Shown: one piece after another, positions 56,011 to 64,000 of the stretch | Position numbering within the stretch: the stretch's first letter is position 1 | How the letters are laid out: each line of letters starts with the position of its first letter | NCBI GenBank assembly: GCA_963709345.1 | Contig: CAVPVX010000006.1 | Coordinates: 32,001 to 96,000 of the forward strand | DNA length: 64,000 nucleotides | From: an uncultured Actinomycetes bacterium | Lineage (GTDB): Bacteria; Actinomycetota; Thermoleophilia; UBA2241 | Reading direction: 5' to 3' | Position numbers and translations under genes: made by a program | The notes under the pieces: generated by a model | Told to the model about the DNA's origin: nothing | The model's input: the letters and a program-made list of their open reading frames with translations, nothing else | Database searches by the model: none

Positions 56011-57519
<1,509 letters not shown>

Positions 57520-57722
57520 GGCCGGCGGGCCCGAGGGCCCGCCGCAGAGCACGGCTCGAAGAGGCTCGGACGGGCAGGCGGTCGGAGCGCGAGACGCTTG
57601 AACCTCGCGCGCGTGACGGCCGGGAGCCACGGCGAAAGGAGGTACGCGACATTGACTGACTTACGAGGTGCGGCGCGCTAGTCGCCCCGCACGCGGTGCT
57701 ACCGCGCGCCGCACCAAAGCCG

Positions 57723-57757
57723 GGGGCGGCAGGCCTGAGGGCCTGCCGCCCCTCTTC
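57723..57757 (+). terminator. Intrinsic terminator-like hairpin
   Basis: GGGGCGGCAGGCC-TGAG-GGCCTGCCGCCCC forms a 13-bp stem followed by TCTTC. Confidence 0.7.
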
Positions 57758-57828
57758 ACGTACGGGGCGCGATCCGGCTTACCTGCCACGGTGTCCAAGC
57801 GAGGATCGAAGGTCTTCCCGATACGTTC

Positions 57829-57858
57829 TTGCGCCGACGCTAAGGATTTCCTTACAAT
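57829..57858 (+). promoter_or_regulatory. Sigma70-type promoter for the riboswitch operon
   Basis: TTGCGC-18 nt-TACAAT, ending 7 nt before the riboswitch P1. Confidence 0.65.
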
Positions 57859-57865
57859 GGCGGAG

Positions 57866-57966
57866 CTTCTCCGAGCGCCGGCTTCCTAAGGGCCTTGGCC
57901 TATGGAGCCGGATGCCGGCAGGGTACAGCGGGAAACCGCCGTGTCTCCCAGTGCGGAAAGGAGAAG
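57866..57966 (+). ncRNA. Moco RNA motif riboswitch lacking P3 (Tuco/Wco type)
   Basis: P1 CTTCTCC/GGAGAAG; CCGAG; P2 with CCTAAG...TATGG receptor; CAGGGT...GGAAAC tetraloop...CTCCC; GGAAAGGAG. Upstream of wtpAB. Confidence 0.85.
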
Positions 57967-58137
57967 GCGACCTTCGGGCCTTTCCGCGTGCGGTGGGCTC
58001 TTCTCTTCGCCCCCGTCCGCGGCGCCGTGTGCACATGGCGGGCCCTCGCCGTCTTCCGCCTCGCCGCTCTCGGACGCACGGCCTCTCGCCCCCTCGCCTC
58101 GGGGCAGCGGCAAGGGAACCTGGGGAGGAGTGAGAGC

Positions 58138-59817
58138 ATGAAGACGAGACTGACCTTGGTGGTGGCCGCCGCGGTCGTGCTGCTGCTGGCGAGCGTCGCC
58201 CCGGCGCTGGCGCGCGCGGAGCGGGGCGGCGACGCCGTCCCCTACGCGTGGCTCCTGCAGTTGCGGGGCGCGAAGAAGCAGACCATGACCAGCATGGCGT
58301 TCCGCAACTGGACCAAGCAGCGGTTCGTCGAGCGGACCGTCGTCGACGACAACAAGACGCCCGACGACCCGAGCGACGACCTCAGCTACACGGGTGTCGC
58401 GCTCTGGCGCCTCGTCGGTCGCGTCGACGACAAGAACCCGGCGACCTTCAACGTGAAGCGCGCCACCACGGGCGCCGGCTACAACGTCGTCGTGGAGGCC
58501 GTCGACGGCTTCAGCGCCGTCTTCACCAGTGCCGAGGTCGCGACCCTCAAGAACAAGCTCGTGGTCGCCAACCGCGTCAACGGCGTGCCGCTCGACCTGG
58601 GCGCCGCCTCGATCAAGAACGCCGGCGAGCCGGACCAGTACGCCGCCTGGAAGCCGACCTGGCCGCTCAAGCTGGTCTCCAGTGACGGCAGCATCTTCGG
58701 CAACCGCAAGCCGGCGGGCGTGGTGCGCATCAGCATCGTGCCGGCGACGGCGGACGCCCGCGCGGTCGACGCCGTCCCCTACGCGTGGCTCCTGCAGTTG
58801 CGGGGCGCGAAGAAGCAGACCATGACCAGCATGGCGTTCCGCAACTGGACCAAGCAGCGGTTCGTCGAGCGGACCGTCGTCGACGACAACAAGACGCCCG
58901 ACGACCCGAGCGACGACCTCAGCTACACGGGTGTCGCGCTCTGGCGCCTCGTCGGTCGCGTCGACGACAAGAACCCGGCGACCTTCAACGTGAAGCGCGC
59001 CACCACGGGCGCCGGCTACAACGTCGTCGTGGAGGCCGTCGACGGCTTCAGCGCCGTCTTCACCAGTGCCGAGGTCGCGACCCTCAAGAACAAGCTCGTG
59101 GTCGCCAACCGCGTCAACGGCGTGCCGCTCGACCTGGGCGCCGCCTCGATCAAGAACGCCGGCGAGCCGGACCAGTACGCCGCCTGGAAGCCGACCTGGC
59201 CGCTCAAGCTGGTCTCCAGTGACGGCAGCATCTTCGGCAACCGCAAGCCGGCGGGCGTGGTGCGCATCAGCATCGTGCCGGCGACGGGAGCCACCGCGAG
59301 CACACCCCCTTCTGAGCAGGCGGCCGGTGACACATCGACGGCAGGGGCGAAGGCCGCGTCGGACGACCCGCCGGCCGGAGGCTGGACGCTGACCCTGCAA
59401 GGCAGGCTCAAGCGCGTGCTCAAGATCGCGAAGTTCCCGGTCAAGGTGGCCTGGGACGGCCGCAAGGCGGGCAACATCAACCCTTCGCTGCGGTACGTGT
59501 ACAAGGGCCAGTCGCTCTACAGGCTGCTCGCGCTCGTCGACGACAAGCGCCCCCGGTCGTTCAACCTGGCCCAGGCGAAGAAGGGCTACACGATCCAGTT
59601 CATCTGTCGCGACGGCTACAAGCCGAAGATCAAGAGCAGGCAGGTCCTGAAGAACGGCAAGCCGCGCAAGACCTGGATCGTCGCCAAGCTCAAGGCAGGC
59701 AAACGGCTTGAAGGTAAGGAGGCCCCCTTCCGCTTCGTCGGGGGCCCGCCGATCACGCAGCCGTTCAACAACAAGCTGTCCGCCCACGGCGTCATCAGGA
59801 TACGGCTCATCTTCTGA
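58138..59817 (+). CDS. Secreted basic protein with three sulfite-oxidase/Oxidored_molyb-like domains (two identical)
   Basis: GGAGGAG RBS and signal peptide (ALA). Each domain shows YxGxxLxRL...DG(F/Y)...P(L/F)(K/R)(L/F)V...GV(V/I)RI. Confidence 0.7.
   Translation: MKTRLTLVVAAAVVLLLASVAPALARAERGGDAVPYAWLLQLRGAKKQTMTSMAFRNWTKQRFVERTVVDDNKTPDDPSDDLSYTGVALWRLVGRVDDKNPATFNVKRATTGAGYNVVVEAVDGFSAVFTSAEVATLKNKLVVANRVNGVPLDLGAASIKNAGEPDQYAAWKPTWPLKLVSSDGSIFGNRKPAGVVRISIVPATADARAVDAVPYAWLLQLRGAKKQTMTSMAFRNWTKQRFVERTVVDDNKTPDDPSDDLSYTGVALWRLVGRVDDKNPATFNVKRATTGAGYNVVVEAVDGFSAVFTSAEVATLKNKLVVANRVNGVPLDLGAASIKNAGEPDQYAAWKPTWPLKLVSSDGSIFGNRKPAGVVRISIVPATGATASTPPSEQAAGDTSTAGAKAASDDPPAGGWTLTLQGRLKRVLKIAKFPVKVAWDGRKAGNINPSLRYVYKGQSLYRLLALVDDKRPRSFNLAQAKKGYTIQFICRDGYKPKIKSRQVLKNGKPRKTWIVAKLKAGKRLEGKEAPFRFVGGPPITQPFNNKLSAHGVIRIRLIF
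58230..59287 (+). repeat. Apparently perfect 521-bp tandem duplication (period 537 bp, 179 codons)
   Basis: 58230-58750 equals 58767-59287 by eye. Off-frame ORFs 58248..58685 and 58785..59222 translate identically. Confidence 0.9.
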
Positions 59818-59913
59818 GCCGTTCGCATCCCGGCAGCTGCGGCGCGACGGGGGTTTCTCGCCCATTCTCCCCGTCGCGCCGCAGCCGGGAACCCGTCACC
59901 GGAAGGAGCCGGA

Positions 59914-60966
59914 ATGAGGATTCGTAGGATCACGCTGGGGGCGGCGCTGCTCGCGGTCGTCGCGGCGACCGCCGTCCTGGCGGCCGGTGCGTTCGTGCCG
60001 GGCGGGGCCCAACAGGCCAAGGCCGATGGCGCCGTGGTGCTCACGCTCACGGTCGGCGGCAACGCCACTGAGTTCACGATGGACGAACTGGAGGCCCTGC
60101 CCGTCTACGAGGGCTACTCCGGCATGAAGAACAGCGCCGGTACCGTCTTCCCGCCGGTGCCGGTGAAGGGCGTGAAGCTCACCGATCTGCTCGCCGAGGC
60201 GGGCGGTATGACGACGCTCAGTGCCTGCGACATCACCGCATCCGACAACTACGGGATGACGTACACGTACGACCAGGTCGTCAACGGCAACGGCATCCAG
60301 ATGTACAACGCGACGACCAAGGCGAAGGAGGCTCCCAAGGTCCCGTGGTCTCTCGTCCTGATCTACGAGCAGGACGGCGCTCCGATCGCGCCGGCGCCCG
60401 GCGGCCCCGGTCCGCTGAGGCTCGTCGCCGCCCAGGAGACCGATGTGAACCAGGTCGCCGACGGGCACCTGCTCGTGAAGTGGGTCTCGAGGGTCACGTT
60501 GCGCGGCGCCGTCAAGGAGTGGAAGGTCAGGATGTACGGCCTCAAGAAGAAGAACCGTCCGCGCCAGACCACCACGCTCGATCGCACCTCCTTTGACTCC
60601 TGCGCCGCCCCCTTCTGTCACGGCTCGTCCTGGACGAGCTCGGCCAAGAAGATGTGGTCGGGCGTCCCCCTCTTCCTGCTCATCGGCCAAGTGGACGGCG
60701 GTCCCAGCCACGACAGCTACAAGGCGTACAACGAGTTGCTCGCCATCAGGGGCTATCGCATCAAGCTCGTGTCGGCGACCGGCAAGACCGCCATCATCAC
60801 ATCGCGCACGGCACGGCATCGCACCAGGATCATCCTTGCCAACAAGGTGATGGGGTCAGAGCTCACCACGAGGTACTACCCACTTCGTTTGGTCGGCCCC
60901 ACGAAGTACGTCCCGTCGCGAAAGACGATCGGACGCATCACCAAGATCGTGCTGCTGCCCAAGTGA
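59914..60966 (+). CDS. Secreted protein with two Oxidored_molyb-like domains and CxxxxCH motif
   Basis: Signal peptide (AKA); FTMDELEALP, KGVKLTDLL, ASDNYGMTY, GPLRLV, KWV and CAAPFCHG. Confidence 0.75.
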   Translation: MRIRRITLGAALLAVVAATAVLAAGAFVPGGAQQAKADGAVVLTLTVGGNATEFTMDELEALPVYEGYSGMKNSAGTVFPPVPVKGVKLTDLLAEAGGMTTLSACDITASDNYGMTYTYDQVVNGNGIQMYNATTKAKEAPKVPWSLVLIYEQDGAPIAPAPGGPGPLRLVAAQETDVNQVADGHLLVKWVSRVTLRGAVKEWKVRMYGLKKKNRPRQTTTLDRTSFDSCAAPFCHGSSWTSSAKKMWSGVPLFLLIGQVDGGPSHDSYKAYNELLAIRGYRIKLVSATGKTAIITSRTARHRTRIILANKVMGSELTTRYYPLRLVGPTKYVPSRKTIGRITKIVLLPK

Positions 60967-60997
60967 GCCCGCGACACATGGCTGAAGGAGGCCGACG

Positions 60998-62062
60998 ATG
61001 AGCTCGAGCGGTATCGGCGGCGGGCCGCGCCGGGCGGAGCGCGCCGCCCGCGCCCGGCGCTCGAGGCGGCTGGCGCTGGCCGTGGCGGTCCTGGCCTTGG
61101 CGCTGGTCGCGCTGGTCGCCGCCTGCGGCGACTCGAGCGACCAGTCGCCGCCGTCCCCCGGTCCTTCCGGGCCCGTCGTCCTGACCGTCCGGGGCGAGGA
61201 CGGGACGGAGACGTTCACGATGAACCAGCTGCGGGCGCTGCCGGCCTACGAGGGTTACGCCGGCAGCAAGAGCAGCACCGGCGTGATCACCCCGCCCGCA
61301 GTGTTCAAGGGCGTGCCGATCGTGGAGCTCGCCGACCTCGTCGGCGGTATCAGCCGGTCCAACGGCGTGACGATGCTCGCCAAGGACGGCTACGGCATGA
61401 CGTTCTCGTATCGTCAGATCATGGAGAGTGGATTCACGACCTACGACCCGGCGACCGGGGAGGAGGAGCCGGCCGACGGCCGGCTCACGGTCATTCTCGC
61501 CTACGAGCGTGACGGCGGACCCATCGGCGAAGACGATGGACCACTGAGGCTCGCCGTCGCCCAGGATGAACCGGCCCAGGTGACCGACGGCCACTGGGCG
61601 ATCAAGTGGCTCGATACGGTGTCGGTGACCGAGGCGTCGGCGCAGTGGAAGGTGCAACTCGAGGGCGCGGTGCCCGGCAAGCTGGACCGCGCCGCCTACG
61701 TCAACTGCGCTTCACCCGGATGCCACGGCTCCGGCTGGGTCGACGCCGACGGCGCACGCTGGGAGGGCATCCCGCTCTATCTCGTCTGCGGTCTCGTCGA
61801 CGACGCGAAGAAGCATGACGAGGGGGCCTACGCCGCGGCTCTGGCGGAGAGAGGATACGACATCATCATCGAGACGGTCTCCGGCGAGGTCGTGACCATT
61901 GATTCTCGAGACATCGCCGGCCGGAACAGCGTCGTCCTCTCGGCGAAGGTCGACGGGGGAGAGTTGCCGGACGAGCACTTTCCCCTGCGGCTCGTCGGTC
62001 CGGGTCTGAGCGATGGTCAGATGCCGGGCGGGATCGCGCGCATCGTCGTGCGCGTGAAATAG
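60998..62062 (+). CDS. Lipoprotein paralog with two Oxidored_molyb-like domains and CxxxxCH motif
   Basis: Lipobox VAA-C; FTMNQLRALP, FKGVPI, AKDGYGMTF, GPLRLA, IKWL and CASPGCHG. Confidence 0.75.
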   Translation: MSSSGIGGGPRRAERAARARRSRRLALAVAVLALALVALVAACGDSSDQSPPSPGPSGPVVLTVRGEDGTETFTMNQLRALPAYEGYAGSKSSTGVITPPAVFKGVPIVELADLVGGISRSNGVTMLAKDGYGMTFSYRQIMESGFTTYDPATGEEEPADGRLTVILAYERDGGPIGEDDGPLRLAVAQDEPAQVTDGHWAIKWLDTVSVTEASAQWKVQLEGAVPGKLDRAAYVNCASPGCHGSGWVDADGARWEGIPLYLVCGLVDDAKKHDEGAYAAALAERGYDIIIETVSGEVVTIDSRDIAGRNSVVLSAKVDGGELPDEHFPLRLVGPGLSDGQMPGGIARIVVRVK

Positions 62063-62074
62063 GGGGCGGCGACC

Positions 62075-63178
62075 TTGGGGTCTGGGGATCGCCGCCGGTG
62101 GCTCAGCCCAGCCACGGCCCGGGCCGTGGCTGGGCTGCTGCTGCTCACCGCCGCGGCCGCGCTGCTCGGCGGCTGCGGCTCAGACGAGCGCCGCGTCAAG
62201 CTCATGTACGCCGGTAGCCTCATCGGTCCGTTCGAGCGCCTGGCGGCGGGGTTCGAGCGCTCTCACCCCGGTGTCGATGTCGTCACCGAGGGCCACGGCA
62301 GTATCCAGGTGCTGAGGCACGTCACCGAGCTCGGTGACCTCGTCGACCTGGCGGTGAGCGCCGACGAGCAGCTGATGGCGCCGTTCTTCTACGAGCGCGA
62401 CGACCCCGCGACCGGGCGACCGTTCGCGTCGTGGTACTGCACGTTCGCGACCAACCGCATCGTGCTCGCGATCTCTCCGAAGAGCCCGCTGGCCGGCGAG
62501 CTGACCTCGGGCTCCTGGTACCGACGGCTCACGCATCCCGACGTGCGCTTCGGTCTGTCCGACCCCCGGCTGGATCCCGCCGGCTACCGCGCGCTCATGG
62601 TCCTGCAGCTGGCGGAGCGTTACTACGGTGCGCCCTTTCTGTTCGAGGACATGGTCATGGGCCGGTTCACGACTCCCGTCATCGTCCGGCACGCCGGGAG
62701 GAAGGACGTCATCCGGGTGCCCGAGATCCTCGAGACGCGCAGCGGGTCCAATCTGGTGCTGCGGGGCGCCAGCATCCAGCTCGTCGCGCTGCTCGAGTCG
62801 GGCGACCTGGACTGCGCTTTCGAGTACGAGAGCGTGGCCCGCCAGCACGGGCTGCTCTACGTGCGGCTTCCGGCGGCGGTCGATCTCAGCGATCCGAAGC
62901 TGCGGGATGACTACGGGCGCGTGGAGGTCCAGCTCGACTTCCGCCGGTTCGCGCGCGTGCAACCGCGCTTTCGGGGAGACCTGATCCGCTACGCGTTCAC
63001 CATTCCCGCCAACGCTCCGGAGCCAGGGCTGGCTCGCGAGTTCGTGGCCTTCATGCTGGGGCCCGAAGGACGCCGGATCCTCGCAGCCGAACACCAGCCG
63101 CTGCTCGCGCCGCCGGATCTTGATGGGGCGGCGGCCGTGCCGGAGGAGGTGAGGCGGGCATGCGAGGGCTCCAAGTGA
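62075..63178 (+). CDS. wtpA: Tungstate/molybdate ABC transporter substrate-binding lipoprotein
   Basis: Lipobox LGG-C; YAGSL, EGHGS, SDPRLDPAGYR, AFEYESVA and YAFTIP. Confidence 0.88.
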   Translation: MGSGDRRRWLSPATARAVAGLLLLTAAAALLGGCGSDERRVKLMYAGSLIGPFERLAAGFERSHPGVDVVTEGHGSIQVLRHVTELGDLVDLAVSADEQLMAPFFYERDDPATGRPFASWYCTFATNRIVLAISPKSPLAGELTSGSWYRRLTHPDVRFGLSDPRLDPAGYRALMVLQLAERYYGAPFLFEDMVMGRFTTPVIVRHAGRKDVIRVPEILETRSGSNLVLRGASIQLVALLESGDLDCAFEYESVARQHGLLYVRLPAAVDLSDPKLRDDYGRVEVQLDFRRFARVQPRFRGDLIRYAFTIPANAPEPGLAREFVAFMLGPEGRRILAAEHQPLLAPPDLDGAAAVPEEVRRACEGSK

Positions 63179-63245
63179 GCGTCCTCAGGGATCACAGGCA
63201 CCCGAAGCGGCTTGAGCATTCCCCGCACCCGCCTCACCTGCTCTG

Positions 63246-64000
63246 ATGCGCCGCCGCCGCCCCTCACTCTTCTGGGTACTCTGTACCGCGTCCGGGGGCG
63301 TGCTGCTGGCCTTCGTAGTGCTGCCCGCCGTGAGCATGGTGGTCGGTGCCGGCGCCGGCCTGCTCGGCGAGGCTTTGCGGCAGGACGACGTGCGCCGTTC
63401 GCTGATCCTGACGCTGACGGCGGCGTTCATCGCCACGGCGATCGCCTTCGTCGCCGGCGTCCCGCTCGCCTACCTGCTCGCCCGCAAGGACTTCGCCGGG
63501 AAGCGACTCGTTGAGGGAGTCATCGACCTGCCGATCGTGTTTCCCCACACGGCCGCGGGTATCGCACTGCTCACGGTCTATGGGCGCCAGGGCGTCATCG
63601 GGCGTCTCGTGGCGCCGCTGGGTATCGAGTTCACCGAGACCGTGGCCGGCATCGTGCTCGCCATGCTCTTCGTGAGCCTCCCGTACCTGGTCGACTCGGC
63701 GCGGGAGGCCTTCGCTCTGGTCGACGAACGCTACGAGCACGTCGCGCGCACACTGGGCTCGTCTCGTGCCGGCGCGTTCGTACGCGTCGCCTTCCCCCAG
63801 GCGTGGCGGGGAGTGTTCGCCGGCGCCGTGCTCATGTGGGGCCGGGGCATCAGCGAGTTCGGCGCCGTCGTGATCCTCGCCTACAACCCGAAGGTGATCT
63901 CGGTGCTCACCTTCGAGCGCTTCGAGGGGTTTGGACTCCGCGCCGCGCAGCCGCCCGCGGTGCTGATCGTCGTCGTGGCCTTCGCCGTGTTCCTGCTGGC
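63246..64000 (+). CDS. wtpB: Tungstate/molybdate ABC transporter permease (partial, runs off window end)
   Basis: Manual translation from ATG 63246: MRRRRPSLFWVL...IDLPIVFPHTAAGIALL...LMWGRGISEFGAVVILAYNP. Confidence 0.88.
   Translation, partial: MRRRRPSLFWVLCTASGGVLLAFVVLPAVSMVVGAGAGLLGEALRQDDVRRSLILTLTAAFIATAIAFVAGVPLAYLLARKDFAGKRLVEGVIDLPIVFPHTAAGIALLTVYGRQGVIGRLVAPLGIEFTETVAGIVLAMLFVSLPYLVDSAREAFALVDERYEHVARTLGSSRAGAFVRVAFPQAWRGVFAGAVLMWGRGISEFGAVVILAYNPKVISVLTFERFEGFGLRAAQPPAVLIVVVAFAVFLL

Follow-up and report, generated by a model that had tools for sequence, protein, structure and literature searches.

Tungsten is scarce, and apart from the binding proteins WtpA and TupA little is understood of how cells acquire it; to our knowledge, no extracytoplasmic accessory protein has been described for WtpABC, the tungstate importer of the ATP-binding cassette (ABC) type. 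Riboswitches of the molybdenum cofactor (Moco) family occur with or without P3 and, in the study of Regulski (2008, PMC2408646), 58 of 176 Moco RNAs are without it and the P3-less form tracks tungsten-cofactor genes, an unexplained exception being two P3-less RNAs of S. wolfei that lie before 'putative sulphite oxidase' genes. In a report on E. limosum, P3-less RF01055 elements ahead of tupABC are likewise treated as tungsten-cofactor (Tuco) riboswitches (PMC11725836). The closest described protein is PruR which, according to its description (PMC11194511), is a Sec-exported, Cys-less, pterin-binding protein of the sulfite oxidase (SUOX) fold whose target is encoded by the adjoining gene and whose compact size is reported not to hold Moco. 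These elements come together in a stretch of 64,000 nt from an uncultured Actinomycetes bacterium (the window), part of contig C6 of a 3.1-Mb genome (98% complete, 69.5% G+C), in which a P3-less Moco-family riboswitch precedes three open reading frames for exported SUOX-fold proteins (ORF1, ORF2, and ORF3) and the importer genes wtpA and wtpB.

Riboswitch class, WtpABC importer, and PruR fold are each known, and what appears new is a PruR-like protein fixed beside wtpA under a P3-less Moco RNA; literature searches, supplementary tables aside, listed no described connection of tungstate transport with SUOX-like or PruR-like proteins. We propose, giving it about even chances, that ORF3 is an extracytoplasmic partner of WtpA and that ORF1 and ORF2 are its secreted paralogues, the three together aiding tungsten acquisition when the cofactor is low.

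Exported SUOX-fold proteins beside wtpA

The conserved linkage to tungstate transport is the strongest result. ORF3 (60998..62062, + strand) encodes a 354-aa lipoprotein of two domains, A and B, and always adjoins wtpA (62075..63178, +), which encodes a tungstate-binding lipoprotein with an equivalog-level match to TIGR03730 (254.6, cut-off 242.75). The gene of the wtpB permease follows (63246..64000, +, extending 52 nt beyond the window end), whose best match is tungstate_WtpB with 266 bits, under the cut-off of 340, and wtpC lies past the window, with WtpC as its best match at 229, under the cut-off of 440; the order wtpA then wtpB, already read in a first-pass annotation of the window, agrees with these matches. 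The distribution of these genes was followed in an evenly sampled set of 401 genomes of the class and in a phylum sample of 401 genomes; the sampled genomes are related and the linkage counts are not independent events. In the class sample the ORF2/ORF3 profile was found in 69 genomes, in families f1 (42/79) and f3 (26/61) only, and wtpA (TIGR03730) in 63, again in f1 and f3 only. Both are present in 61 genomes and in 59 of them an ORF3-like gene adjoins wtpA on the same strand, as judged from the listed coordinates of the matches to the ORF2/ORF3 profile and to TIGR03730; the two non-scored cases are G610, split over two contigs, and G595, whose position is not listed. Only two genomes, both fragmented assemblies, have wtpA without the ORF2/ORF3 family, and eight have the family without wtpA; two of these eight are weak matches (E around 1e-9) and another is truncated where its contig stops. 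The association that the first-pass annotation had proposed between the exported proteins and the importer is therefore conserved, and is tighter than could be known to it.

The same arrangement is seen in individual loci: tblastn maps of fetched 20-kb genome loci gave an ORF3-like gene followed by wtpA-wtpB-wtpC in 27 of 27, and among 80 metagenome loci wtpA lies at most 700 nt downstream in 57, and 15 end within 400 nt. The other eight comprise five with only 417-571 nt of room, two with gaps of 704 nt and 1.3 kb, and one with 1.4 kb without a match. Adjacency persists to 40–45% ORF3 identity, with ORF1/ORF2, the riboswitch, or tupABC present or absent. In a distant metagenome group (L129-L155, ORF3 42–47% identical) 450–600 nt separate the ORF3-like gene from wtpA, leaving room for a small gene; in L055 (G590), L056 (G625), and L062 (G764) the ORF3-like gene appears split into two or three frames, in L062 together with wtpA and wtpB, which could be due to frameshifts, errors of assembly, or pseudogenes. 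ORF1 and ORF2 are restricted to f1; in their place, f3 encodes, on the strand opposite to the ORF3-like gene, lipoproteins in which a single A domain is joined to a long stalk rich in Thr, Ser, Ala, and Lys. In the stalked A-only lipoproteins of L064, L065, L066, L069, L070, and L074 the sequence of the loop is G-G-W-K-N, its Trp matching the Trp of PruR.

The three exported proteins of the window, two secreted and one a lipoprotein, carry seven repeats, as the first-pass annotation had counted: hhalign, domain mapping, and profile comparison give 3+2+2 domains, with ORF2 (59914..60966, +, 350 aa, secreted) and ORF3 of the type A-B and ORF1 (58138..59817, +, 559 aa, secreted) of the type B'-B'-B'. 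The count is right because ORF1 consists of three copies of a domain matching the C-terminal domains of ORF2 and ORF3 (hhalign 99.8% for B against B', and 86% for B against A; own-genome scan). PF00174 (cut-off 24) matches ORF2 with 39.3 bits and ORF3 with 37.0 bits, ORF1 has no Pfam match above cut-off, and the own-genome scan found no B or B' domain beyond ORF1-ORF3; a single-protein scan of the genome contigs gave one close locus only, a single-sequence PDB search with ORF2 returned nothing useful, and a word-index search with the A-domain profile yielded close relatives only, with no named Firmicutes protein among them. The one canonical SUOX gene of the genome has an RRRLL signal and the motif FHCVEGWS.

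With signal peptides assigned by eye, ORF1 has one of the AxA type without a twin-arginine pair (RR), ORF2 has an RR (RIRRITL), and ORF3 has an RR (SRRLALAV) and the lipobox VAAC; the earlier statement that no twin-arginine translocation (Tat) signals are evident thus needs amending for ORF2 and ORF3, although the RR is not conserved in their orthologues. It is missing in 10 of 22 ORF3 orthologues and in many ORF2 orthologues, so that Sec export of both proteins appears likelier than Tat; in this genus, where RR with hydrophobic residues behind it occurs in 7 of 8 ORF3 signal peptides, Tat may nonetheless be used. A lipobox-like motif is present in 21 of 22 ORF3 orthologues.

The fold was examined on AlphaFold models, whose confidence is expressed by the predicted local distance difference test (pLDDT) and the predicted TM-score (pTM). 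The model of mature ORF3 (pLDDT 88.1, pTM 0.58) has 45 Foldseek matches at E <= 1e-3 and those listed, down to rank 43, are all SUOX enzymes or PruR. The A domain aligns with PruR 7kp2 over 133 of 138 residues (Z 15.3, root mean square deviation 2.8 Å), with chicken sulfite oxidase at Z 14.8, and with YedY at Z 10.6; the B domain of ORF2 (pLDDT 92.5), taken alone, aligns with SoxC at Z 15.5, PruR at Z 15.1 (123 of 138 residues), SorA at Z 14.3, and YedY at Z 10.8, and with the next-best unrelated folds at Z <= 5.3. On these models, all seven domains are predicted to have the SUOX fold at the size of PruR, as the first-pass annotation had presumed from motifs, and the idea of a pterin-binding fold that lacks the Cys and is Sec-exported has a solved precedent in PruR (PMC11194511), to which the A domain is closest, the B domain being equally similar to PruR and to SUOX enzymes. 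In a two-domain search the B domain was also matched by a YlaL model (9a64, Z 10.4), but this integrative model, of a functionally uncharacterised protein, led nowhere.

The A-domain profile matches PruR 7kom (E 1.2e-5), and D75 and Y77 of ORF3 fall on the N-x-Y with which PruR contacts the pterin. The D-G-Y motif of the A domains has an invariant Asp, where PruR has Asn, and a nearly invariant Tyr; their loop G-(M/S/W/F/I)-K-(N/S)-S-x-G is devoid of Cys, and the position of the PruR Trp is occupied by Met or Ser in the proteins of the window and by Trp only in the A-only paralogues of f3. The B-domain family is larger, with 653 clusters at E <= 1e-3: very large proteins, the longest of 3139 aa, contain 2–6 B-type domains together with PKD, NosD/beta-helix, Big_2, fn3, CBM96, and PQQ-propeller domains, and the B type seems, from its sequence distribution, to be a widespread extracellular form of the SUOX fold.

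The operon is headed by the RF01055 element at 57857..57979 (+), detected by cmscan at 60.6 bits (gathering threshold 36, E 9.9e-13) over the complete model, positions 1-135, with the P3 positions as deletions, and it aligns to 12 orthologous leaders without any P3 insert; the P3-less Moco motif of the first-pass annotation is thus borne out. Exactly two RF01055 matches are present in the genome and the second (G000:C3:43872-44033) retains P3, with 40 nt against 13 in the model, and precedes modA, modB, modC, and a mobA-mobB fusion, with a further fusion of this kind directly upstream of it. In f1, a riboswitch match of 119–128 nt, to be compared with the 162 nt of the P3-bearing copy here, lies 1.4–3.0 kb upstream on the same strand in 17 of 18 genomes. 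The genome also has five genes of the tungsten aldehyde oxidoreductase family AFOR_C. The RNA of the operon is probably a Tuco-type switch, on the strength of the published correlations of P3-less forms with tungsten, and repression of the operon by the cofactor would be expected.

Upstream of the aptamer, promoter-like boxes (57829..57858, +) consist of a -35 TTGCGC (57829-57834), an 18-nt spacer, and a -10 TACAAT (57853-57858). A scan with the sigma-70 consensus reported no promoter ahead of the aptamer, but the pattern TTGC(c/g)-N17/18-TTA(C/G)AAT just 5' of it is kept in most of 16 related loci, so that the promoter of the first-pass annotation is upheld by conservation and not by the scan. 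In the leader (57980..58137, +), in which the Shine-Dalgarno (SD) sequence GGGGAGGAG lies ahead of the ATG of ORF1, a conserved CCTTTCC is placed about 20 nt past the aptamer; as CCUUUCC it can pair with GGAAAGG of the aptamer and the 7-bp complementarity is perfect in 8 of 13 loci.

Proposed role of ORF3 and rival explanations

A modelled complex supports binding between ORF3 and WtpA, which would then take place in the cell. Built with alignments of 22 paired orthologues, it passes with an ipSAE of 0.63 (three runs 0.53, 0.63, 0.66), the best of three controls having 0.00; the score mark is reached by 58 of 80 solved complexes and 2 of 110 mismatched pairs, counts that calibrate only roughly because own alignments were used. 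At least 48% of the contacts agree among runs and the pLDDT of the partner is at least 83. The contacts of ORF3 include, in its A domain, S37-T39, D75-G-Y77, D142, H144, K148, and W149, and also two B-domain strands; those of WtpA include G11, I14, E36-G39, and residue 130, which we take, from ModA/WtpA-type proteins, to line the mouth of the anion cleft. We know of no solved complex of this kind.

In the proposed mechanism, the P3-less Moco-family riboswitch, of the tungsten-cofactor type, would switch an operon for tungsten acquisition, with three extracytoplasmic proteins made solely of compact SUOX/PruR-fold domains encoded ahead of WtpABC. The lipoprotein ORF3 would stand beside WtpA on the external face of the membrane as its dedicated partner, its conserved A-domain pocket (S38, D75-G-Y77, H144, K148, and W149, mature numbering) facing the mouth of the WtpA oxyanion cleft, and the secreted paralogues ORF1 and ORF2 would carry this function out to the wall or medium. 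In the likeliest case the proteins would capture a tungsten species or condition WtpA, leading to its loading with tungstate at cofactor scarcity; the ligand of the ORF1-3 domains is one that we infer. In a more specific form, possible but rather doubtful, the proteins would be an extracellular tungsten antenna in which the former cofactor pocket directly binds tungstate or thio-/organo-tungsten and ORF3 docks on the WtpA cleft and hands the metal over. The pocket of such an antenna, equally doubtful, would be formed by Asp-Gly-Tyr, His, Lys, and Ser in the A domain and by Cys-His in the B domain.

The Cys-His motif opens another explanation, namely that ORF2 and ORF3 are redox-active, their B domains binding heme c covalently via C-x4-C-H or holding a Mo/W-pterin on the conserved Cys, and would convert poorly available tungsten (e.g., thiotungstates, reduced or mineral tungsten) into tungstate for WtpA; we regard it as unlikely. 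The B domains of ORF2 and ORF3 read S-C-A-x-P-x-C-H-G, at C230-A-A-P-F-C235-H236 in ORF2 (60601..60621, +) and C237-A-S-P-G-C242-H243 in ORF3 (61706..61726, +; C182, C187, and H188 in mature numbering), and among 38 ORF2/ORF3-type B domains the second Cys and the His are invariant, with the first Cys at about 90%. In the metagenome loci, 120 motifs divide into 108 C-x4-CH, 6 xCH, 3 C-x2-CH, and 3 with none. In other loci, where one Cys is gone it is the first, and the canonical C-x2-C-H is found at the same site in paralogues of two loci. A complete ccm cluster with hemA lies 5 kb downstream and, in this genus, the RR signals mentioned above would suit the same explanation. By hhalign the invariant Cys falls on the FHC Cys of the canonical SUOX, which in turn aligns with YedY C102, and YedY residues 98-109 include the conserved Mo-ligand Cys according to the PruR paper (PMC11194511). 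This alignment has a probability of only 67% (E 5e-5) and the RR is absent from many orthologues. The B domain has a SUOX/PruR fold, not a cytochrome fold, and its PruR-like compactness is the size at which Moco is reported not to be held (PMC11194511); moreover, a cofactor-using enzyme is not expected to be co-repressed with the importer of the cofactor's metal. The cytochrome c maturation family PF01578 is present in 25 of 30 family-bearing genomes, but it was not found in 3 of 3 genomes of genus g260 (92–99% complete), in which C-H is kept, and distant B domains, including those of giant proteins, keep only the His column, the position of Cys wandering. Heme c as the general role of Cys-His is weakened by these two observations and might still apply to the ORF2/ORF3 subfamily. 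The first-pass view that the Mo-ligating Cys is not apparent therefore stands for the A domains and ORF1, and is put in question for the B domains of ORF2 and ORF3; its description of the domains as catalytically dead suits the five of seven without the Cys and is doubtful for the two with an invariant Cys-His, which lies on the Mo-ligand position or close to it.

The Cys-less domains could instead bind pterin, molybdopterin (MPT), or Moco/Tuco extracellularly, scavenging the cofactor or its metal, as the first-pass annotation had suggested. PruR, a solved periplasmic pterin binder, is structurally closest to both domain types, the A domain keeps the stacking Tyr with Asp at the pterin-bonding Asn, the stalked paralogues of f3 have Trp in the Trp loop of PruR (PMC11194511), and moaA and moaC lie downstream. 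Against this, no entry route for a pterin is apparent because the only importers of the operon, Wtp and Tup, are oxyanion transporters that would not carry a scavenged cofactor; the change of Asn to Asp and of Trp to Met or Ser in the window's proteins also departs from the PruR site. Metal-pterin cofactors are in addition labile outside proteins, and scavenging is distinctly unlikely on this balance; a protein partner of WtpA fits the data better than a Moco/MPT scavenger. If the domains were generic building blocks of the wall or surface, without a dedicated part in the uptake of tungsten, the linkage would reflect the shared ancestry of one operon in two related families. The many large surface proteins with B domains and their PKD, NosD, fn3, and CBM96 partners speak for this explanation, as does the limitation of the ORF2/ORF3 family to two families of one class, because of which few independent events were sampled; we consider it very unlikely, as adjacency survives 40–45% ORF3 identity and changes in the surrounding genes and only 2 of 63 wtpA-positive genomes, both fragmented, are without the family. 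The least probable of the explanations weighed here is a PruR-like signalling function, in which ORF3 would respond to a pterin or redox signal outside the cell and control WtpABC activity as PruR gates DcpA: the PruR fold with a partner encoded next door recalls pruR-dcpA (PMC11194511, PMC13259868), and the passing model of the complex is compatible with it, but the partner is the binding protein of a transporter, not a signalling enzyme, and three paralogues with seven domains, together with the stalked copies at the surface, suggest capture more than sensing.

Several results weigh against a partnership of ORF3 with WtpA under cofactor control. The modelled interface is not conserved above the rest of either protein (ORF3, 0.614 against 0.631, with 6827 of 10000 random sets as high; WtpA, 0.689 against 0.658, with 2372 of 10000 as high), only the A-domain part of the ORF3 interface being conserved, and the Cys-His of the B domain lies outside it and is left unexplained by the model. 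The B domain may be a general module, because it is present in giant PKD/NosD/Big_2 proteins with no visible tungsten link. In f3 a Moco riboswitch is missing from 7 of the 12 genomes that carry the gene pair, and the P3 region is ambiguous in three of the four loci examined; in the phylum sample the ORF2/ORF3 family is present in only 3 of 401 genomes, so that WtpABC works without it elsewhere. As for the leader, sequestration of the SD by the segment after P1 is not above shuffles at the own locus (75 of 200 shuffles equally good) and leader folding is no better than that of shuffles (z-score -0.23).

Were the partnership real, a conserved WtpA partner controlled by the tungsten cofactor would extend a textbook importer by one component and the compact, cofactor-less SUOX fold would gain a second function besides PruR signalling; it may also explain the 'sulfite oxidase' genes seen behind P3-less Moco RNAs in 2008. 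If the antenna form were true, it would represent the first accessory receptor known for an ABC importer of oxyanions, and the PruR fold would have a second use unrelated to the first. The domain proteins ORF1-3 are small and soluble.

Other features of the locus

ORF1 contains a tandem duplication of 537 nt (58230..59303, +) comprising two domain copies, none of the three B'-type SUOX/PruR-like domains having the Cys-His motif; 58230-58750 and 58767-59287 are identical over 521 nt. The two tandem B' copies have 97–100% DNA identity within each of five genomes and only 45–74% protein identity across genomes, they are diverged in three other genomes (59–68% DNA identity), and a relative with 88% ORF2 identity has a single copy of the duplicated domain; the pattern suggests concerted evolution or recent duplication on repeated occasions. 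An assembly artefact is unlikely because four other assemblies have a near-identical pair and the relative with 88% ORF2 identity has one copy.

The 96-nt spacer between ORF1 and ORF2 holds a perfect 17-bp inverted repeat (59836..59885, +) with a 16-nt loop and no U tract behind it, a candidate processing or stabilising element that may set the levels of ORF1 and of the downstream genes apart. A perfect 34-nt palindrome (62104-62137, 17+17 with no spacer) lies in the part of wtpA coding for the signal peptide. Ahead of the operon, a strong G+C-rich hairpin at 57665-57758 is followed by CTCTTCA and has a weak match to the small RNA asX1 (34.9 bits, gathering threshold 70); the simplest explanation is a terminator belonging to the aldehyde dehydrogenase gene upstream (56011-57519).

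Past the window, wtpC is followed by genes for a TupA/TupB-like binding protein and permease with an ATPase, which are best matches under the equivalog cut-offs, and by moaA, moaC, and a MOSC-MoaB fusion; then come one unassigned gene, ccmE, ccmF, ccmA, two CcmB/C-type genes, and hemA. The complete ccmE-ccmF-ccmA-ccmB/C cluster with hemA lies at about 102.8–110.7 kb of contig C6, after the Moco biosynthesis genes; this order recurs in several genomes of the genus and is not found in genus g252.

Relation to described systems

PruR of Agrobacterium and other Proteobacteria (PDB 7kos, 7kou, 7kom, 7kp2, and 7rkb) shares with the proteins of this operon a compact SUOX-type fold of about 140 residues, export by a signal peptide, and a partner protein from the next gene; like the A domains it is without the Mo-ligand Cys, and the pterin-stacking Tyr is conserved. 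The partner is, however, a GGDEF-EAL regulator of the DcpA type for PruR and the tungstate-binding WtpA here. In addition, the domains of the operon are fused as pairs or triplets, Asn is replaced by Asp and, in the window's own proteins, Trp by Met or Ser, the B domains of ORF2 and ORF3 have an invariant Cys-His, and the host is an actinomycetotal bacterium with a riboswitch-controlled operon, in contrast to the proteobacterial hosts of PruR.

The sulfite oxidase family (SO, SorA, SoxC, and YedY/MsrP; PF00174) resembles the operon's proteins in fold, with Z 10.6–15.5, in the Pfam match of ORF2 and ORF3, and in the motifs G-V-x-L, D-G-Y, P-L-R-L-V, and K-W. In contrast to these enzymes, the dimerisation domain is absent here and the size is PruR-like, the twin-arginine signal is not conserved, the Cys is missing in five of seven domains, and no sign of a cofactor is seen.

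The importer itself corresponds to WtpABC, with wtpA passing the equivalog cut-off and wtpB and wtpC having WtpB and WtpC as best matches; it differs in the PruR-like proteins that are encoded alongside. Finally, the regulatory element agrees with the P3-less Moco RNA class (Regulski 2008; tupABC of E. limosum) in having an aptamer without P3 before genes for tungstate uptake, and a P3-bearing copy on modABC in the same genome; in this locus, unlike in that class, the first three genes encode SUOX-fold proteins.

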